A stretch of DNA of 24,000 nt. Source: Candidatus Caldarchaeum subterraneum (GTDB lineage: Archaea; Thermoproteota; Nitrososphaeria_A; Caldarchaeales; Caldarchaeaceae). The notes under the pieces were generated by a model. It saw nothing but the letters and a program-made list of their open reading frames with translations. It was not told where the DNA came from and searched no databases. The DNA is taken from the NCBI GenBank assembly GCA_937934305.1, contig CALHAG010000001.1:88659-112658 (forward strand). The letters run 5' to 3'. Shown in pieces: positions 3,088 to 19,397 of this stretch. A program made the position numbers and the translations under genes. Position 1 is the first letter of the stretch; each line of letters starts with the position of its first letter.

Positions 3088-6000
3088 TTGAAGTCGATAT
3101 ATGTATCGCTCTGCCCAAACTGTGGCGGAGAAATAACCGATGAGGAGCTTGTTGGGCGAGGGGTTTGTAGCAGATGTGTTTTGCAGGATGGTCGGCTTAA
3201 GCCGGGAAAATACACTAAGGCTTTGGAGCTTGAGGAGGAATATAGAGCGTTCGCGGATTTTTTCAGCAGGGTCGTGGGCTCTCCTCCATGGTCTCTGCAG
3301 CGGACATGGGCTAAAAGAGCTCTCCTCGGAAGAAGCTTCTCAATAGTTTCTCCCACGGGAACGGGGAAGACAACCTTCTTCATAGCGATGGCCATTTACC
3401 AAGCATCTAAGGGGAAAAAATCCTACATAATCGTCCCCACAAGCCTCCTCGCACAACACATCCACGAAAGAACCTTATCGATGGCGGCCAAACATGGAGA
3501 AAAAGCAGCAAAAATCGCTGCATACTACTCTGGCATGAAGAAGAGCGAGGCTGAAGAGATGCTGCAGAAGATAAGGGATGGGGAGTTTGGCATCCTAGTC
3601 ACCACAGACCGTTTCCTCAACACACGTTTCGAGCTTCTGAGAGGAAAAAAGTTCTTCTACATTTTTGTTGATGATGTAGACTCTTTCCTCAAGTCACCGA
3701 GAAACATCGACAAAGTTCTTCTCTTAATGGGGTTTGAGGAAAAGGAGATCGAGAGACATCTAAAACTAGTCTCGGCTAGGTCTGGAGAAAGTGAGGCGGA
3801 GGAGTATGCTTCTAAAGAGATTGCGAGGCCTGACTCTGTGTTGCTTGTAGCCGGAGCCACTATGAAGGGCCGGAGAACCAAGAGAATTCGATTGTTCAGA
3901 CGTCTTCTAAACTTTGAGCCCGGAGGCTCAATAGAGTTTGTCAGAAACATCTCCAACATGTACCTGCACCAAAGCAAGAAGATGTGGGAACAGGTCGCGG
4001 AGCTGGTGAAGACACATGGAGGCGGATGTCTGATTTTTGTTCCGCAGACAGCGGGTGTCGAATCTGCTAAAGAGTTGGCAAAATTTCTGAACAGCCAGCG
4101 GATTAGTGCATATGCTTACGAGAAGATGGATACGAAGATGCTTAAGCGGTTTGAGTTGGGCGAGTATGATGTCTTGGTTGGTATCGCGAGTACGAGAAGC
4201 CCTCTAGCCAGAGGCATCGACTTGCCGGAGCGGATAAGATACGTGATTTTCGCGGGTGTTCCGAGGCGTGAGCTGAACGTGTCTTGGCGAGAGCACAGGC
4301 CCTCCATGTTGCTCAGCCTCATCCAAAATCTGTACTCGATACTTAGAGAGAAGAACGAGTCCGAACTGGTCCAGGTAATGGGTATGTTGAAGAAATGTGT
4401 CCCCACCGATAGGGAGGTGTTGGAGAGTGTTAGAGAGGGGCTTGAATCCTCGAAACAGCCCGAAGGATTCGCAGGATATGTTTACTCAGCTGTTACGAGA
4501 GCTCATCAACTCCTCAAAACATGCATCGGTGAGGAGGAGCTAAGACGTGTAGCGGAGAACCTCGACATGAAGATACGTGTGGACGAGAACGGTGTCTCCA
4601 TAATTCTCCCCGACATCGATGGATATGTGCAGGCGTCGGGCCGCTCCTCGAGGATGTTCGCGGGAGGCATAACCCGTGGAATATCCATCCTCATAGTCGA
4701 TGACGAGAAAGCTTTTAGAGGCATCATGAGGGCCCTCGAAACCATTTACGAAGAAACCTTCCAAGAATATAGTTTGGAGCATGCTAGAGAGGAGTTTAAG
4801 CAATGCGATAGGGATAGACAGTTCCTGCGTGAGATCAGAACAGGGTCGGCGAGCGTAGAGTCCCTAGATATTTTGAGGTCGTCGCTGATTATAGTTGAGT
4901 CGCCGACGAAGGCCCGCACGTTGGCCTATTTTTTCGGAAAGCCTGCTAGACGAGTTGTCGATGGACTGACTGTTTACGAGTCGGTTGGAGAAGGCTATGT
5001 CGCATGTCTCACCGCTTGTCAGGGACATTTGGTGGACATTACGACGAGCCACGGTTTCCATGGTGTCTGGATTCACGATGGAGAGTTTGTGCCGATGTAT
5101 GTGGATATTAGGAGATGTTCGAAGTGTGGGGAGCAGTTCACGGATAGCGAAGTGTGTCCCAACTGCGGCTCCGACAAATACTTCAGCAAGCTATCCATAG
5201 TTGATTCTCTGCGTAAACTTGCGCTCGAGTTTGACCATGTCTTCATCGCAACTGACCCTGATACGGAGGGTGAGAAGATTGGCTATGACCTCTATGTGAG
5301 TATTTGGCCGTTTAACAAGCGGATTGAGAGGCTTGAGCTTCATGAGATTACGAGGAAGGCTTTACGGGATGCGTTTAAGTCTCCGCGTAGTGTTTCGCTG
5401 CCGCTTGTCGAGGCACAGGTTGTGAGAAGAATCGAGGACAGATGGGTTGGCTTTGAGCTGAGCAGACGCCTCTGGGAGTTTTTCGGGGAAAAACATCTCT
5501 CGGCAGGCCGTGTCCAAACCCCTGTCCTCGGCTGGATAATCCAAAGGATGGAAGAGGCTAGGAAGAAGAAACTAGTCGCAAACATGACGTTTGAAGACGG
5601 CTCCGAACTCATGCTAGAAAATATCGAGGATGTTGACATGGTCAAGAAACTCTATGCCGAAGGCGCGTTGAACGTGGAGGTGGCTGATGTGAAGTATGTT
5701 GAGACGGTTGCCACAGCTGTCAAGCCCTATACAACCGATTCTCTTCTAAGAGATGCATCGATTTTTCTCAGGATGAGTGCTGCGGATGCGATGGATGCTG
5801 CCCAAACCCTTTTCGAGTCGGGTCTTATAACTTATCATAGAACGGGGGCGACATATGTCTCGTCGACGGGGTTATCGGTGGCTAGGAGTTATCTTGAGGA
5901 GAACTTTCCAGGGCTTTTTGTGGCGAGGCATCATGGCGAACCCGGTGCACATGAATGCATCAGGCCGACGAAACCGCTCTCGAGGAAGCAGCTCGAGCTT

Positions 6001-6615
6001 TATCTTCAGTCGGGTTTGATTAGAGTGCCGATGCGAATAGGTGATAGGGAGCTTATGCTCTACGACCTTGTGTTTAGACGTTTTATGGCTAGTCAGATGA
6101 AGGATGCGCTTGTGCGGAGACAGATGTGTAATTTGATGGTTCTAGGGAAAACCTATCGTGTAGAGAGGGTTGTTGAGGTTCTTGAGCCAGGGTTCCTCAA
6201 CCTCTACCAAACCATCAAGACTGTGAAGGCGCTTGAACCAGGTGTCCACAAGGTGCTGAACCTCCAGATCAAGAGTGTGCAGGCGGCGCCGTTTTTCCGC
6301 GAAGGCGACATCATCGCCTTGATGAGGGAGAGAGGCATAGGTAGGCCTAGCACATATGCACAGGTCCTCAACCTCCTCTACAAGAGGAGATACATTTTCA
6401 ACGACGGTGGAAGAGTGTTGGCGACGAAGCTGGGGAAGACAGTCTATAACTATCTCGTGTCGAATTTTGGCTCTTTTGTCTCCGAGACGTTGACGAAAAG
6501 GTTGGAGGAGCTGATGGAGAGCATAGAGTCTGGCAAAGTCAGTTATCAAGAAGTCCTAAAAGAACTCTACGGAGAAACTTCACAAATCTCGAAAACATCT
6601 GCAAAAGCTGCATAA
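3088..6615 (+). CDS. rgy: Reverse gyrase (helicase-like domain fused to a type IA topoisomerase), 1175 aa
   Basis: Contains an N-terminal Zn ribbon (CPNCGG...CSRC), helicase motif I (SPTGTGKTT) and motif II (VDDVDS). The topoisomerase part has a TOPRIM domain (IIVESPTKARTL, ATDPDTEGEKI), an internal Zn finger (CSKCGEQFTDSEVCPNCGS) and a catalytic-Tyr motif (ITYHRTGATYVS). Single uninterrupted ORF. Confidence 0.97.
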   Translation: MKSIYVSLCPNCGGEITDEELVGRGVCSRCVLQDGRLKPGKYTKALELEEEYRAFADFFSRVVGSPPWSLQRTWAKRALLGRSFSIVSPTGTGKTTFFIAMAIYQASKGKKSYIIVPTSLLAQHIHERTLSMAAKHGEKAAKIAAYYSGMKKSEAEEMLQKIRDGEFGILVTTDRFLNTRFELLRGKKFFYIFVDDVDSFLKSPRNIDKVLLLMGFEEKEIERHLKLVSARSGESEAEEYASKEIARPDSVLLVAGATMKGRRTKRIRLFRRLLNFEPGGSIEFVRNISNMYLHQSKKMWEQVAELVKTHGGGCLIFVPQTAGVESAKELAKFLNSQRISAYAYEKMDTKMLKRFELGEYDVLVGIASTRSPLARGIDLPERIRYVIFAGVPRRELNVSWREHRPSMLLSLIQNLYSILREKNESELVQVMGMLKKCVPTDREVLESVREGLESSKQPEGFAGYVYSAVTRAHQLLKTCIGEEELRRVAENLDMKIRVDENGVSIILPDIDGYVQASGRSSRMFAGGITRGISILIVDDEKAFRGIMRALETIYEETFQEYSLEHAREEFKQCDRDRQFLREIRTGSASVESLDILRSSLIIVESPTKARTLAYFFGKPARRVVDGLTVYESVGEGYVACLTACQGHLVDITTSHGFHGVWIHDGEFVPMYVDIRRCSKCGEQFTDSEVCPNCGSDKYFSKLSIVDSLRKLALEFDHVFIATDPDTEGEKIGYDLYVSIWPFNKRIERLELHEITRKALRDAFKSPRSVSLPLVEAQVVRRIEDRWVGFELSRRLWEFFGEKHLSAGRVQTPVLGWIIQRMEEARKKKLVANMTFEDGSELMLENIEDVDMVKKLYAEGALNVEVADVKYVETVATAVKPYTTDSLLRDASIFLRMSAADAMDAAQTLFESGLITYHRTGATYVSSTGLSVARSYLEENFPGLFVARHHGEPGAHECIRPTKPLSRKQLELYLQSGLIRVPMRIGDRELMLYDLVFRRFMASQMKDALVRRQMCNLMVLGKTYRVERVVEVLEPGFLNLYQTIKTVKALEPGVHKVLNLQIKSVQAAPFFREGDIIALMRERGIGRPSTYAQVLNLLYKRRYIFNDGGRVLATKLGKTVYNYLVSNFGSFVSETLTKRLEELMESIESGKVSYQEVLKELYGETSQISKTSAKAA

Positions 6616-12242: not shown

Positions 12243-13220
12243 GTGAGCAGGGTGTTTGGGACGCTGTTGGACACGGGTTCTTCACAGTTTGTGCTGAGTA
12301 GCATGAGGCCGGTCACTTGGGAGGATTATCGCCGCTATGTGGCTGAGAAAGGCTATGTCGAGGTGGAGGATGTCAGGATAGAGATAGGTAAACCACATAA
12401 AATCACTTCCTACAGCCCACCCGCATCATACAGTCTCGAGACCACAACGGTGTGGAGTTTTCCAGACCGCGGCGACTGGGCCACACACTCCGGCGACTAC
12501 AGGGGAAACTGGAGCCCCTATGTCCCAAGAAACCTCATTCTAAAATACACTAAGCCCGGGGAGCTTGTGCTTGACCAGATGTGCGGCTCGGGAACCACGC
12601 TGGTTGAGGCAAAACTATTGGGAAGAAACGCGATAGGCGTCGACATCAACTATGAAGCATGCATACTCACGCTGGACAGGCTCAATTTCGAATTCCATCC
12701 ACTGGATGAACAGCGGGAACCGGTGATAAAGGTGTATCACGGCGATGCGGCAAAACTCAACGTCATAGAAGATGAGAGTGTAGACTTGATCGCCACACAT
12801 CCACCCTATTGGAACATCATCCCATATTCCCAGAAAAGACCCGAAGGCGACCTTTCAGCATACAGAAAACTCGAAGATTATCTGGGAAAAATGATGCAGA
12901 TAGCCCGTGAATCCTACCGTGTTCTGAAACCGGGGCGATACTGTGCAATACTCATCGGAGACACGCGAAAACACAAACACTACGTGCCTATCTCCACTTA
13001 CGTGATGCTGAAATTCTTGCAAACGGGATTTGTTCTGGCGGAGGATATAATCAAGCTGCAGCACAAAATGAAGACTACGCGTGAAAAATGGGGTGGAAAA
13101 AATTTTGAACAGTATGGTTTCCATAAAATAGCCCATGAACATCTTTACGTTTTCAGAAAGCCGGGAAACGAGGAAGAACGCGGCAGATTGTCGTTGAGCA
13201 GCTGGTTGACGAAGATTTGA
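12243..13220 (+). CDS. DNA (N6-adenine or N4-cytosine) methyltransferase with permuted motif order
   Basis: The AdoMet motif I (LDQMCGSGTTLVEAKLLGRNAIGVDIN, 12573-12599 core) precedes a motif IV variant (LIATHPPYW; HPPY at 12798-12809). It is followed by ...YRVLKPGRYCAILIGD, as in N6_N4 methylases. Confidence 0.8.
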   Translation: MSRVFGTLLDTGSSQFVLSSMRPVTWEDYRRYVAEKGYVEVEDVRIEIGKPHKITSYSPPASYSLETTTVWSFPDRGDWATHSGDYRGNWSPYVPRNLILKYTKPGELVLDQMCGSGTTLVEAKLLGRNAIGVDINYEACILTLDRLNFEFHPLDEQREPVIKVYHGDAAKLNVIEDESVDLIATHPPYWNIIPYSQKRPEGDLSAYRKLEDYLGKMMQIARESYRVLKPGRYCAILIGDTRKHKHYVPISTYVMLKFLQTGFVLAEDIIKLQHKMKTTREKWGGKNFEQYGFHKIAHEHLYVFRKPGNEEERGRLSLSSWLTKI

Positions 13221-13816
13221 CCGAGCTGTCGACCGGCGAATATTTTGGCAGAGGTAGGAATAGAAGGAGAATACTCGAGGTAATCAGGCTCAGCAACGGA
13301 TGGATACTGCTCAAAACCGAAAACAGCAAATCTAAACATGATTTCAAGGTGAGAACGGTTTACCAGCTCAGGCCTCGAATAAGGTCATATACACCTAAGC
13401 ATGCACACTTCGCCATAGATTTCTACGGCAAGTTATGCGCTGACAAGGCGAAAGCCATGCAGGTCCTAAAAGCTATTGTGGAGGTTTGGCAAGGGGCGGA
13501 CATCGCAACCGTTGTCGAAAGGTTTAGACATGCCGTTAAAGATCTTCCAGGATATGATTTGGAGTATATTCTCTATGCTTTGGCATGGATTTTCCGGCAA
13601 GAAGATGTCAATTTCGCTGGAAGGCCTGAGAGCAGGCAGCGTGAGCTAGATGAGACGCTAAACCGTCTAGGCTTCAAGGTGCCTAAAGACAGGTTGGGAA
13701 GCCAACTCGCCCTAGCGCTTCTCTGCAACATAGCAAATGGAATGCATCCCGTAGACGCGCTCCTAAGAGCCAACCTCGACGTTCTACCCATCAAAAGAGG
13801 AAAAGGGAAGGTGTGA
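13217..13816 (+). CDS. Hypothetical protein (199 aa); candidate restriction endonuclease or specificity partner of the methyltransferase
   Basis: The ORF starts at a TTG that overlaps the methyltransferase stop by 4 nt (TTGA). No catalytic motif was recognised, so the function is inferred only from coupling to the methyltransferase. The start codon is uncertain (alternative GTG at 13349). Confidence 0.5.
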   Translation: MTELSTGEYFGRGRNRRRILEVIRLSNGWILLKTENSKSKHDFKVRTVYQLRPRIRSYTPKHAHFAIDFYGKLCADKAKAMQVLKAIVEVWQGADIATVVERFRHAVKDLPGYDLEYILYALAWIFRQEDVNFAGRPESRQRELDETLNRLGFKVPKDRLGSQLALALLCNIANGMHPVDALLRANLDVLPIKRGKGKV

Positions 13817-15325: not shown

Positions 15326-16315
15326 TTACTTGTCTCCCGATGCTTTATTTCTAATGTCTAGAACATTATTTCGGAGGGCTTTGCGGGCTTTTGCTATGCA
15401 TCCTGCTTTGGGGCTGAATATGGATGTGAATATTATGTTTGCTATTGCGATGAGTAGGAGTATTTGGGCTGCGAGGCTGTTGGGGTTGCTGCTGAGCATT
15501 ATGATTGGGACTGTGAGGGGGAAGAGCATGGACGCGATGGGGCCTGCGGCATACATGGCTGCGTAGCCGCGTGGCGATGCTCGGGTGTTGGCGCGGTCTA
15601 TTTTGATGCCGAGGGCTACTGGAAGTGTTTTGAATGGTTTTGGCAGTATGTTGAGGCGGACGATGTTGCTGAGGCCGATGTAGTAGTTGCTGAACCTTAT
15701 GCCTGCGAGTTTTCCGACAACGTAGTGGGCTAGGTCGTGTGTGAAGAACCATAGGAGAAGAAATGAGATGAGGCCCGTGACGAGTCTGCCTCCCGGTATC
15801 TGGAGGGGCTGGAGCCATAGCAGTATGTAGGCGGCTGCTGTGCCGAGGACGGATATCAGGTTTCCTGCTGCGAGGCTGATTTTGAAGGGGTCTTTGTAAT
15901 CTGGTTTTTCACCTGCTCCGAGGCTGTGTTTGATAGCTTCATGTCGGTAGGTGAGTATTTTTTTGAAGAACCTTCCCGCGAAGGGATTGCTTGACTCGAG
16001 AACCATGTCCTCGACTATTTTTGTGCCGCCGTCGGCTGGTGTGGTGATGATGGTGTGGTAGAGTTTTCCGAATGGGAAGTCGAGTGTTTCGTGGTATTGC
16101 TCAGTGGTGGAGCGTTCGATGATGCGGAAACGTGTCTGATAGCGTTGGCCGAGGAGACGGAATGAGACCGTGTAAACATCCTTATCCCATGAGACAAGCT
16201 TCATCCCAAGCTCCATGGGCCAAACCTTTCCCATGTTCTCGACAGTGCGGAAAAAACCGTAAACCTCCTCAACCGGCCGAGGCACAACATACTCAAAACG
16301 AAAAACCCACTTCAC
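15326..16315 (-). CDS. Fusion protein: N-terminal SRPBCC/START-like ligand-binding domain plus a C-terminal polytopic membrane domain with an HDLAH (zincin-like HExxH variant) motif
   Basis: The N-terminal ~135 aa resemble the polyketide-cyclase/SRPBCC fold (F.F.YVVPRPVEEVYGFF...). The C-terminal half has about 4-5 TM helices. FFTHDLAHYVVGKLAGI (HDLAH at 15725-15739) and YAAGPIASMLF resemble the M50/M50B site-2-protease motifs HExxH and AGP. Confidence 0.75.
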   Translation of the reverse strand: MKWVFRFEYVVPRPVEEVYGFFRTVENMGKVWPMELGMKLVSWDKDVYTVSFRLLGQRYQTRFRIIERSTTEQYHETLDFPFGKLYHTIITTPADGGTKIVEDMVLESSNPFAGRFFKKILTYRHEAIKHSLGAGEKPDYKDPFKISLAAGNLISVLGTAAAYILLWLQPLQIPGGRLVTGLISFLLLWFFTHDLAHYVVGKLAGIRFSNYYIGLSNIVRLNILPKPFKTLPVALGIKIDRANTRASPRGYAAMYAAGPIASMLFPLTVPIIMLSSNPNSLAAQILLLIAIANIIFTSIFSPKAGCIAKARKALRNNVLDIRNKASGDK

Positions 16316-16396
16316 AACCCGCCAAACACCACCTCACCACATAAACTTACCCCCTTAACAAACAGTCGTAAAACAGAAGCCACCTCCAACAAATCC

Positions 16397-16414
16397 AAAT
16401 AAAAAAGATATTAA
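16397..16414 (+). promoter_or_regulatory. A/T-rich TATA-like element upstream of csx1
   Basis: aaataaaaaagatattaa ends about 23 nt upstream of GTG 16437. It sits in the 121-nt divergent intergenic region. Confidence 0.35.
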
Positions 16415-16436
16415 CAATCCATGCATTCACGACAGT

Positions 16437-17765
16437 GTGGCCTCATCCGCAGTATTGCAGGTTATCGGAGAGCCGAAAAATTATAAAAAAACACGCTACG
16501 TTTATGAAAATGAGCCGTGTGAGGCCCTGCTCGCCGCGACCGCGGTAGCCGACATCACAGGCGGCGAAGTCATCCTGCTTGCGCCCGAAAGCCTCGTGAC
16601 ATCTCTTGAACCCGACATAGATGAGGCATGCAAACTCCTCGAAAACCCTAAGATGTTTGAGCAGAAAGTTCTTGAACAACTGGACAACGGTAGTGAAAAC
16701 CATCCGAAAACCACGGTGGAAATTTTACCCAGCGTAGGCAGCTTCCGCCAGCGGGAAAAAGATTGGAGAATAAATGCACAGGGAACCTTCGCCGCCATAG
16801 AGGCCGCATTATTTCTCATCATGAAAAAACTCGTCAAAGAAGGCAGGAACATCACCATGGTTGTCACGAGCGGGCTTAACATCTACCCCGCACTAGCTCT
16901 TCGCACTCTCTACAACATCCTCACATACCAGCTTCTCGCCGCCTATCCTCATGAACCTAACCCAAGGCCATGCCACAAAATCGTATACCACACCATACCC
17001 ACACAAGAAAACGAGGAAATACAGATAGAGACACAAGCCGTCGAAACAACAATTTATAACGCCTTCCCCCTTACCAATGAAGAAATCAACGACCTAGGAA
17101 CAGTTTACAGAGGAGATTTACGGGGAAATCTTGTGAGATGTTTAAAAAATGGCTTGAAAACGTTTATCTGTATAAACCGTAACACACCTCTACCGCTTTA
17201 CCATGGGAAAATAATCGAGGAAATTTCCCAAGAATGTGTAGAGAAACTGGAGCAACAAGTTGCAGATGACCTCAGAAAAAGAATAGAACACACCGTCGAG
17301 AAGGAAAAAGTCCAAATAACCATCAAACGCTCCACCGAAAATCTTCCCATATCCTTTATCCGCAGAACGATGATGGCGTTAGCCATGACAAAGTCGCTGA
17401 TGAAACTAGTCAAAGAAGCGCGGAAAAACATGGTGAACGGGTTTGTCCCCCTCGATGCCATAAAAACTCTCTTCATAGAAGAAATCTATCAAAACAGGCC
17501 ACATTTCACGCATAATAGACATCTTCTGGAGAGTGAGGTGGAGAATATTGAGAAGCTGAGGGATAGGTTGGGTGAAACTGAGCAGTATTTGATGAATTTT
17601 CTCTCTGGTGGGAAAGGCTCCAGCGACATGGTGCGCAACTTCTTCGCACACAGCGGGTTCCTTGGAGACATAACCTACGTCAAGAAAGACTCGTCAAGCA
17701 GAATTCTCCTCAGATACGATTCAGAACGGGCTAAGGATGTTGGTGAATGGCTTTTGGGTAGATAG
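16437..17765 (+). CDS. csx1: Csx1-family CARF-HEPN protein (CRISPR-associated ancillary ribonuclease family)
   Basis: The N-terminus (VLQVIGEPKNYKKTRYVYENE) resembles the Csx1/TIGR02221 start (xLGxxxYxxxxY). VTSGLN (16863-16880) sits where the DxTHGxN motif lies. The C-terminal HEPN motif is R-N-x-x-A-H-x-G (VRNFFAHSGF; RNFFAH at 17634-17651). Confidence 0.75.
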   Translation: MASSAVLQVIGEPKNYKKTRYVYENEPCEALLAATAVADITGGEVILLAPESLVTSLEPDIDEACKLLENPKMFEQKVLEQLDNGSENHPKTTVEILPSVGSFRQREKDWRINAQGTFAAIEAALFLIMKKLVKEGRNITMVVTSGLNIYPALALRTLYNILTYQLLAAYPHEPNPRPCHKIVYHTIPTQENEEIQIETQAVETTIYNAFPLTNEEINDLGTVYRGDLRGNLVRCLKNGLKTFICINRNTPLPLYHGKIIEEISQECVEKLEQQVADDLRKRIEHTVEKEKVQITIKRSTENLPISFIRRTMMALAMTKSLMKLVKEARKNMVNGFVPLDAIKTLFIEEIYQNRPHFTHNRHLLESEVENIEKLRDRLGETEQYLMNFLSGGKGSSDMVRNFFAHSGFLGDITYVKKDSSSRILLRYDSERAKDVGEWLLGR

Positions 17766-17779
17766 TTTGTGGATGGTCT

Positions 17780-18370
17780 ATGTTTTTCATGGGCGTGGAT
17801 TTGGCTGGTGTTGAGACGAGGCCCTCGGGGATGGCTGTTCTGGATGAGGAGCTTCGTGTGCGGACTTGGGTGCGTTTTCTCGATGCGGAGATTCTCGCCG
17901 ACGTTGATGAGCTAAGGCCTGTCGCCGTGGGAATTGATGCTCCTCTTGGACTGCCACGTGGAAGGACAAGCCTCGAGACACGTGGACCCCCACATTTCAG
18001 GATATGTGACAACGAGCTGCGGCGACGCGGTATCAGGTTCTTTCCCATCACGATAGGGGCGATGCGTAAACTGACAGCCCGTGGAATAAGACTCGCCGAG
18101 GAAATCCGCCGCAGAAACATCCCCGTCTATGAGACCTTTCCCGGCGGGGTGCAGGACCTTCTCGGCCTCCCACGCAAACACCACAGCCTCAAGGGCCTCG
18201 TCAAAGGCCTCCGAAAACTCGGCGTCAAAAACCTGTCCCCGAAAAATTCGGGCGATGAAGCGGACGCTGTCACATGCGCCTACGCGGTCTACCTCTGGTG
18301 GAGAGGGTTGTGCGAGGAGGTTGGTGTGCCTGATGAGGGTGTGATGATTCTTCCCAAGCGAAGGCCTTGA
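17780..18370 (+). CDS. DUF429/COG2410 predicted RNase H-fold nuclease
   Basis: GVDLAG..TRPSGMAVL at the N-terminus, then GIDAPLGLP, CDNELRRRGIRFFP, ETFPGG..DLLGLPRK and DEADAVTCA. This order of acidic motifs is characteristic of the family. It begins 14 nt after the csx1 stop. Confidence 0.75.
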   Translation: MFFMGVDLAGVETRPSGMAVLDEELRVRTWVRFLDAEILADVDELRPVAVGIDAPLGLPRGRTSLETRGPPHFRICDNELRRRGIRFFPITIGAMRKLTARGIRLAEEIRRRNIPVYETFPGGVQDLLGLPRKHHSLKGLVKGLRKLGVKNLSPKNSGDEADAVTCAYAVYLWWRGLCEEVGVPDEGVMILPKRRP

Positions 18371-18371
18371 A

Positions 18372-19397
18372 CTATTGTGCGAGGGGTTCGGGGGGTTCAG
18401 GCGGCTCCTCGAAGACCGTGGGCCACTCCGCGGCGTTGCCTGCGTCTCTCTCAGCCAGCTTTTTCTCTATCTGTTGACGGAGCGGCTCGAGCCATGGGGG
18501 TAGAACAAGGCGGGAGCCGAGTGTTTCACGTGGCTCGTCTACGTCGTAGCCGGGGCCTTCTGTCGCCAGCTCAAACAGGTTTCCATCGGGGTCTCTGAAG
18601 TAGAGCGACTTGAACCAGAACCTGTCGACGATGCCCGAGTTTCTCCAGCCAACCGAGTTAAGCCTCCGCATCACAAGCCGCTGCATCTCCTCCGACTCTA
18701 CACACAAGGCTATGTGGTGAACCGAGCCACGGGCCACGTATCCATCCACGTTCACGGGGTCGACTATGCAGCGGAGATAAACGTCACCATCCATGTTTAA
18801 AACACGCAGCACACCACCTGCATCATCCACTTTCACTATGTCGAGAAACTTCTCCAGAAACCTGCTGGTCAACTTGGGGTCGGATATGATGGGTGACGCG
18901 TGGTCAAACGCTGTGAGCCTCATGTCTTGAGAGATTGCCGTGGGCGTCGATGTTTGTGTGAAGAGTTCCTTGAGGTAGCCTATGTCTGCATCGGGGTAGG
19001 GTGTTGTCAGCTCGAGGAGGACGCCGTCGGGGTCGCGGAGATAGATGGATGCGAGGCCGCCGTAGACATATGGGCCCCTGGCGGCTATGTTTCCTTCCCT
19101 GAGAAAATGGAACCACTTGGCTAAAGCCTCTGGGGAACCGACCCTGTATGCAAGATGATGCGGTGAACCATATCCGGGATAGCCGCGCGGCAGCTCAGGC
19201 CACTCGAAGAATGTGATGGCGCTTCCTGTCGGCTTGTCGAAATTGGCGTAGAAGAGGTGGCGGTGATATATGTCGTCTTGGTTTACGGAGAGCTTGACGC
19301 GGCGGAGGCCCAGCACCTCTGTGTAGAAACGGTTGTTGACAACATAGTTTCCGGTAACGAGAGTGATGTGGTGCAGGCCCTTGACGATGCTTTCCAC
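18372..19397 (-). CDS. Two-domain VOC (glyoxalase/ring-cleaving dioxygenase, MhqO-like) protein
   Basis: GLHHITLVTGN....N..FYTEVLGLRRVK..VNQDD...HLFY in the N-terminal domain, and a second VOC module (SVHHIALCVE ... YFRDPDGNLFELAT). GTG start. Confidence 0.85.
   Translation of the reverse strand: MESIVKGLHHITLVTGNYVVNNRFYTEVLGLRRVKLSVNQDDIYHRHLFYANFDKPTGSAITFFEWPELPRGYPGYGSPHHLAYRVGSPEALAKWFHFLREGNIAARGPYVYGGLASIYLRDPDGVLLELTTPYPDADIGYLKELFTQTSTPTAISQDMRLTAFDHASPIISDPKLTSRFLEKFLDIVKVDDAGGVLRVLNMDGDVYLRCIVDPVNVDGYVARGSVHHIALCVESEEMQRLVMRRLNSVGWRNSGIVDRFWFKSLYFRDPDGNLFELATEGPGYDVDEPRETLGSRLVLPPWLEPLRQQIEKKLAERDAGNAAEWPTVFEEPPEPPEPLAQ

Follow-up and report, generated by a model that had tools for sequence, protein, structure and literature searches.

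The closest described relatives of the protein considered here are the Csx1 and Csm6 RNases of type III CRISPR systems, and we used as comparators the solved structures from Thermococcus onnurineus (Csm6, hereafter ToCsm6; 6O6S-6O6Z), Pyrococcus furiosus (PfuCsx1; 4EOG), Saccharolobus solfataricus (Sso1389; 2I71) and Sulfolobus islandicus (SisCsx1; 6QZT). These proteins combine a CARF domain, a helical insert and a HEPN domain, and CARF effectors encoded away from type III loci are a known situation. Here we analyzed a 24,000-nt stretch of DNA from the archaeon Candidatus Caldarchaeum subterraneum (the window) in which a csx1 gene is followed closely by a gene of the DUF429 family. The window covers positions 88659-112658 of a 177-kb contig (C1) in a 1.56-Mb genome that consists of 30 contigs and is 97% complete (G000). 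The evidence presented below makes it likely that Csx1 is an intact CARF-HEPN RNase that senses cyclic oligoadenylate (cOA) and acts in trans for a III-A system (contig C8) and a III-D system (contig C3) of the same genome, and that its adjacency to DUF429 is not a functional module.

Csx1 is an intact member of the CARF-HEPN RNase family

Hidden Markov model (HMM) searches and AlphaFold2 (AF2) models of both proteins bore out the families proposed in a first-pass annotation of the window, namely a Csx1-type CARF-HEPN protein and a DUF429 protein with an RNase H fold. Besides the Pfam CARF and HEPN families (Table 1), several PADLOC Csx1/Csm6 models matched the window's Csx1, the best with E = 1.5e-29. 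Its AF2 model, for which an alignment of 13 homologues was the input, reached a predicted local distance difference test score (pLDDT) of 90.3 and displayed a Rossmann-like strand-helix pattern in the CARF region. Although Csx1 is only 12-16% identical to the solved Csx1 and Csm6 proteins, Foldseek aligned the model to them over its full length, including the CARF, helical-insert and HEPN parts (E = 1e-15 to 1e-17, template modelling (TM) score about 0.55-0.63). Matches included ToCsm6 (6O6S, E = 1.9e-17, TM about 0.6), PfuCsx1 (4EOG, E = 2.6e-16) and Sso1389 (2I71, E = 5.7e-16). Short motifs are shared with these proteins as well, including R-N-x-x-A-H in the HEPN domain, T-x-G-x-N in the CARF loop and G-x-P-x-x-Y near the N terminus. 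The HEPN motif lies exactly where the first-pass annotation had placed it, and R400, N401, F402 and H405 were invariant in the alignment of 13 homologues.

The csx1 ORF (open reading frame) is full length in the three sister species that carry it beside DUF429 (G000 itself, G009 and G010), and the ratio of non-synonymous to synonymous divergence (dN/dS) between them was 0.23-0.32, which indicates purifying selection and therefore a functional gene. Domain and fold assignment thus confirm the window gene as a genuine, intact Csx1 of the signal-activated RNase family, with cOA as its expected activator.

Two type III systems are encoded elsewhere in the genome

The first-pass annotation had found no cas genes or CRISPR array near csx1, and this holds for the whole of C1: a k-mer script detected no array on the 177-kb contig, and neither tblastn with the genome's own cas proteins nor the cas10 searches detected a cas paralogue on it. 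A cas locus just beyond the window could therefore be rejected, as C1 extends for 64 kb or more past the window even on its shorter side.

Genome-wide profile searches identified two cas10 genes in G000, one on contig C8 (Csm1 at C8:3109-5373, 423 bits) and one on contig C3 (C3:12716-15301). Contig C8 begins within a III-A cassette of Csm5 (cut by the contig end), Csm4, Csm3, Csm2 and Cas10/Csm1, after which come a 14-repeat CRISPR array (5623-6525) and Cas6. The III-D cassette on C3 comprises Csm2, three Csm3-like genes, Cas10, Csm3, Csx10/Cas5, Csm3 and Csa1/Cas4, and behind it an array extends up to the contig end; the ends of C5, C19, C21 and C29 hold arrays with the same repeat as C3. Together with the array on C8, these make up two repeat families. 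Each of the two loci has a complete set of the effector genes of its type. Both Cas10 proteins contain the GGDD cyclase motif (residues 608 and 634). When the 97%-complete genome was searched with Csx1_CARF and generic PADLOC CARF models, only the window's gene was found, so that no other CARF-HEPN effector is detectable beside the two cOA-competent type III systems. These results support an earlier suggestion that Csx1 might respond to a signal produced by genes in another part of the genome.

A Csx14 gene (C3:7623-8420; TIGR03642, 94.1 bits compared to a cut-off of 90.35), the product of which has weaker similarity to Crn1, is found a short way upstream of the III-D cassette. In relatives of G000 (numbered G002 to G040), Csx1 homologues keep similar company. 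In G003, G036 and G040, a homologue of the same subfamily (DVSSGLN-type loop and RNFFAHSGF HEPN motif) directly adjoins a III-D cassette homologous to that on C3, and in G002 and G004 a homologue is divergently paired with a Csx14-like gene, with a MAD3-like AAA ATPase nearby. Unlike in G003, G036 and G040, where csx1 adjoins cas genes, the corresponding position in G000 holds Csx14 and a 399-aa ORF. This ORF (C3:8485-9684, minus strand), which sits between Csx14 and the III-D cassette, had no PADLOC, Pfam or NCBIfam match; we considered it as a degenerate Csx1 and rejected this because the two proteins are not alike (BLASTP E = 0.13; hhalign probability 0.1%). The ORF may encode a so far unrecognized type III accessory protein.

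The CARF ligand loop departs from the canonical motif

In place of the DxTHGxN motif of Csx1/Csm6 proteins, the window's Csx1 has a loop that reads VVTSGLN and aligns with DLTHGIN in PfuCsx1 (4EOG) and DTTHGIN in Sso1389 (2I71). Because of this alignment, the D-to-V and H-to-S replacements that the first-pass annotation had pointed out can be taken as real. That annotation went on to suggest that ligand sensing may be altered. A stronger version would have Csx1 uncoupled from CRISPR, responding to another ligand or to none, and acting as a CRISPR-independent RNase, either regulated or constitutive, or else decaying. Such a history would be in keeping with the loss of both residues, the location of the gene outside any cas locus, a score below the TIGR01897 equivalog cut-off and the raised synonymous and non-synonymous divergence of csx1 compared with its flanking genes.

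The wider subfamily makes an uncoupled Csx1 unlikely in our judgment. Position 145, the site of the canonical His, is Ser or Thr in all 15 aligned subfamily members (typical loop DVSSGLN), including those that adjoin III-D loci, which rules out the H-to-S change as an oddity of this one gene and leaves the case for altered ligand sensing weak. The canonical Asp is Val in G000, G009 and G010, and Ile, Cys or Gly in several other homologues. Elsewhere in the loop, every aligned member has T or S at position 144, and G146 and N148 are invariant. In SisCsx1, T154, H155, G156 and N158 are among the conserved contacts to cyclic tetra-adenylate, cOA4 (Molina et al. 2019, PMC6754442). Compared to the full set of SisCsx1 cOA contacts (Y14, Y19, S51, T154, H155, G156 and N158), the window's Csx1 keeps T144, G146, N148 and Y16, with His changed to Ser and Asp to Val, and its N-terminal G-x-P-x-x-Y motif is retained. 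An H155A mutant of SisCsx1 still has detectable RNase activity (PMC6754442). Two Cas10 genes competent for cOA synthesis are also present in the genome, and the dN/dS values and full-length ORFs in three species speak against decay.

A different consequence of the His replacement is more probable. In ToCsm6 the equivalent residue, H132, is required for cleavage of cA4 (the cOA4 ligand above) (PMC6754442), and Ser occupies this position in the window's Csx1, so intrinsic ring-nuclease activity of the ToCsm6 type is unlikely. By analogy, the H-to-S change would more likely abolish this activity than cOA sensing, and the presence of a separate Csx14/Crn1-like gene fits such a loss.

DUF429 is a conserved core gene of the order

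The DUF429 family (PF04250; COG2410) falls with RuvC into clade D of the RNase H-like proteins, and its genomic context is conserved in related taxa, the family probably not being mobile (Majorek et al. 2014, PMC3985635). A literature search found no biochemical function for any DUF429 protein, and a whole-word search for DUF429 together with CRISPR returned only Majorek et al. 2014 and no paper linking the two.

The AF2 model of the window's DUF429 protein (pLDDT 92.4) had RuvC resolvases as its best folds in the PDB (6S16, E = 7e-5, TM 0.5-0.6), the nearest solved fold being RuvC of Thermus thermophilus (6S16/4LD0). Sequence searches of the PDB gave no match, and RuvC, to which the protein is only 12-18% identical, was reached only through the fold search. 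As in RuvC and clade D, the protein is RNase H-like, and its acidic residues are D7 on the first strand, D53, E118 and, in the C-terminal helix, D159/D162; of these, D7, D53, E118 and D162 were invariant across 16 orthologues. Like other clade D DUF429 proteins it is single-domain, and its genomic context is conserved among related taxa; unlike them in general, it transiently adjoins a CRISPR ancillary gene.

Among 41 genomes of the order (40 relatives and G000), DUF429 matches were present in 36, including 30 of the 31 high-quality genomes, and the gene was nearly always single-copy. Identity dropped smoothly with taxonomic distance, from 97% to about 35%, and dN/dS was 0.06-0.12. DUF429 is thus a gene for a RuvC-like nuclease that is inherited vertically, is under strong conservation and occurs in almost every genome in the order, and it is a candidate for an uncharacterized housekeeping structure-specific nuclease of these archaea.

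Adjacency of csx1 and DUF429 is confined to one sub-clade

The first-pass annotation had proposed that Csx1 and DUF429 could form a stand-alone two-nuclease defence or stress module. As we formulated it, the pair would be a functional, co-transcribed module of the sub-clade, with DUF429 acting on DNA or DNA/RNA structures beside the Csx1 RNase. Its attractions are the tight spacing on one strand with no visible internal promoter (see below), the maintenance of this arrangement in three species and a match of DUF429 residues 1-59 to positions 7-72 (of 259) of the PADLOC defence-candidate model PDC-S44 (E = 9.6e-14). That match covers only the N-terminal 59 residues, and the model was not matched at full length. 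Comparison across genomes, set out in the following, makes a module very unlikely and leaves the proposal unsupported.

Csx1 matches were patchy (15 of 41 genomes), and within the order the gene adjoined DUF429 only in G000, G009 and G010. Relative to G000, the Csx1 protein is 72% identical in G009 and 62% in G010, and DUF429 is 92% and 97% identical, respectively. In the congeners G002, G003, G004, G005 and G007, DUF429 is present without an adjoining csx1. Three of these (G002, G004 and G007) keep it between the LOG-like/deoxyhypusine-synthase genes and a glyoxalase-permease-MarR group, so that the downstream synteny of DUF429 persists without csx1. This gene order was also seen in G003, and in G005 apart from the glyoxalase, which was not among the matches listed for its DUF429 neighbourhood. 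The Csx1 homologues of G002, G003, G004 and G007 lie on contigs other than those with DUF429, and where homologues have a recognizable partner it is a III-D locus or Csx14, as described above, and never DUF429. In the closed genome of G010, the csx1-DUF429 pair lies at 667-669 kb, about 305 kb from cas10 (973-975 kb), next to which there is a second Csx1 gene (978.5-980 kb).

We extended the comparison to a phylum-level sample of 201 genomes, deriving co-occurrence from two coordinate lists. DUF429 was found in 83 genomes, Csx1/Csm6 in 62 and both in 29; the two genes lay within a few kilobases of each other in 3 of these 29, again G000, G009 and G010, which form one sub-clade of one genus. 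No adjacency in an independent lineage was found among the 29 genomes. A further genome (e1-5606313) has 33 of 46 short words in common with the window's DUF429 and 13 of 95 with its Csx1, which marks it as a close relative and not as a separate instance of the pairing. Conservation of the pairing is thus essentially limited to three sister species, as expected for a single event by descent.

Synonymous divergence (dS) separates the two genes further. For the same genome pairs, dS of csx1 (16437-17765; 0.73-1.18) was two to three times that of DUF429 (0.26-0.43) and of two flanking genes (0.28-0.51; regions 15326-16315 and 17780-19397, the latter including DUF429), and csx1 and DUF429 therefore do not have one shared history. 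Exchange or replacement of csx1 alleles at a fixed locus is a plausible explanation for the raised values. In a separate observation, the first 158 residues of a Csx1 that is 83% identical to the window's were found on a 1.26-kb contig (CAZQJI010000146.1, 1262 bp) assigned to an uncultured Bacteroidota metagenome-assembled genome (MAG), where this contig is probably mis-binned.

The pair is probably co-transcribed in three species

An A/T-rich, TATA-like block, TAAAAAAGATATTAAC, lies at about 16397-16417, roughly 20-40 nt 5' of the csx1 start codon (GTG), and was conserved in G000, G009 and G010 upon alignment. The intergenic region containing it is the probable promoter of csx1 and, by read-through, of DUF429. 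The start of DUF429 directly behind csx1 on the same strand, reported by the first-pass annotation, was confirmed from the ORF coordinates, and the gaps in the three sister species are 14, 22 and 24 nt. Inspection of the last 70 nt of csx1 and the 14-nt spacer revealed no TATA-like element. With this short gap and no visible internal promoter, csx1 and DUF429 are probably co-transcribed in G000, G009 and G010, as far as can be judged from sequence.

Whether a shared transcript also means a shared function is another matter. It is conceivable that in these three species the co-transcribed genes are functionally coupled as well, with the RuvC-like nuclease co-induced with, or regulated by, a cOA-activated RNase; we give this only a very slim chance. 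If true, the coupling would amount to an emerging immune output that combines two nucleases, of a kind for which type III systems offer no described example. Co-transcription looks instead like promoter sharing by accident.

A related genome retains DUF429 after deletion of csx1

A natural deletion of csx1 was found in G014, which belongs to a different genus. On contig C13 of this genome (8077-8868), about 0.8 kb is homologous to the csx1-DUF429 locus (compared with window positions 16290-16397 and 17781-18392) and 90-95% identical in nucleotide sequence to that of G010, and the rest of the context is unrelated. The DUF429 copy within it is 94.7% nucleotide-identical to that of G010. In front of this copy, the last ~48 nt of csx1 immediately follow sequence that in G010 and G000 precedes the whole gene, which amounts to a clean deletion of about 1.29 kb. 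Part of the csx1-upstream region consequently now lies directly 5' of DUF429, and the A/T-rich block was lost in the deletion. A second DUF429 copy in G014, 42% identical to the window's, is presumably the native one. The homologous patch arose either by a small and recent transfer, involving a locus from which csx1 had been deleted, or through chimeric assembly of the MAG. In both cases it shows an intact DUF429 gene kept without csx1, and retention of the same DUF429 allele after csx1 has gone is at odds with a two-nuclease module.

Layout of the locus and its surroundings

Feature coordinates are collected in Table 1. The first-pass annotation had given the pair as starting at 16316, but csx1 itself begins at 16437, and 16316 is where the intergenic region in front of it starts; the annotated end point, 18370, is correct as the end of DUF429.

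Table 1 Features of the csx1-DUF429 locus, in window coordinates
Feature	Position	Strand	Description
Intergenic region 5' of csx1	16316..16436	+	Candidate promoter region for csx1, and for DUF429 by read-through
csx1	16437..17765	+	GTG start, 442 aa; CARF-HEPN, Csx1 family
CARF domain	16455..16937	+	Csx1 residues 7-167; Pfam PF22230 (Csx1_CARF), 48.6 bits (cut-off 24.7)
CARF ligand loop	16860..16880	+	V142-V-T-S-G-L-N148, at the position of DxTHGxN
HEPN domain	17511..17720	+	Csx1 residues 359-428; Pfam PF09455 (Csx1_HEPN), 57.4 bits (cut-off 23)
Catalytic R-x4-H motif	17634-17651	+	RNFFAH, Csx1 residues 400-405, within the HEPN domain
csx1-DUF429 spacer	17766..17779	+	14 nt after the csx1 stop codon
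DUF429 gene	17780..18370	+	196 aa, RuvC-like RNase H fold; Pfam PF04250, 40.9 bits (cut-off 23)

The flanking genes are of the housekeeping or metabolic kind that had been reported for them, and encode an M50/cyclase-domain protein, a Big_14 protein, DsrE, TusA, a glyoxalase, a cytosine/purine permease and MarR. Further window genes encode ParB_N, aconitase, reverse gyrase, an Na/Ca exchanger, an SLOG/LOG-like protein, deoxyhypusine synthase, a DUF4147/MOFRL protein, a glutaredoxin-like protein and 2-oxoacid:ferredoxin oxidoreductase subunits. The reverse gyrase (3088-6615, plus strand; 1175 aa, with zf_Rg, helicase, Toprim and topoisomerase IA domains) suggests that the host is a thermophile or hyperthermophile. 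An N6/N4 DNA methylase gene (12243-13220, plus strand) overlaps a 199-aa ORF (13217-13816, plus strand) that had no Pfam or NCBIfam match, and the two may be a small restriction-modification pair. An orthologue of this methylase lies 5-6 kb from the Csx1 homologue in G004 and G007, and in G004 the MAD3-like AAA ATPase stands between them. Outside the window, the CRISPR script also picked up four copies of a 63-bp tandem repeat on contig C7 (9764-9954) that have exact spacing and a content that is not CRISPR-like; this is probably a coding repeat.

Discussion

The domains and folds of both proteins, the two type III loci with their GGDD motifs, and the distribution and synteny of both genes lead us to regard Csx1 as an effector in trans whose neighbour is incidental, and we hold this to be likely. 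In such a pathway, a Csm complex guided by CRISPR RNA would bind target RNA, upon which the GGDD Palm domain of Cas10 would make cOA, probably cA4 because the closest structural relatives of Csx1 are cA4 sensors. Binding of this cOA in the CARF pocket of the Csx1 dimer would then allosterically activate the R-x4-H RNase of the HEPN domain, which could serve the III-A system, the III-D system or both. A candidate off-switch, possibly a ring nuclease, is encoded next to the III-D locus in the form of the Csx14/Crn1-like CARF protein. As for the neighbouring gene, a rearrangement in the common ancestor of the three sister species would have put csx1 between DUF429 and an upstream promoter region.

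Several points weigh against this reading. The window's Csx1 misses the equivalog cut-off of TIGR01897 (cas_MJ1666; 92.5 compared to 110 bits), and by its sequence is a divergent subfamily member and not an MJ1666 equivalog. Its loop lacks the Asp as well as the His of DxTHGxN, and the corresponding His155 of SisCsx1 contacts cOA4 (PMC6754442). Unlike the cas-associated Csx1/Csm6 genes, csx1 here shares a contig with neither cas locus, and as G000 is a 30-contig draft the position of the type III systems is fixed only to the extent that they do not lie within 64 kb of the window on C1. Finally, a shared transcript leaves room for some functional coupling of csx1 and DUF429.

As a case of type III immunity, the finding is largely ordinary: a divergent but recognizable Csx1 whose gene is not at the type III loci it is likely to serve. 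It also carries a caution, namely that a tight same-strand pairing with a defence gene, here with a gap of 14 nt, can stem from recent rearrangement beside a core gene, which the comparison of sister genomes, including the natural csx1 deletion, shows directly. More potential lies in the DUF429 nuclease itself, an uncharacterized RuvC-like protein that is strongly conserved across the order, and in a synonymous divergence of csx1 well above that of the genes on either side, a pattern suggestive of allele exchange at a fixed locus.

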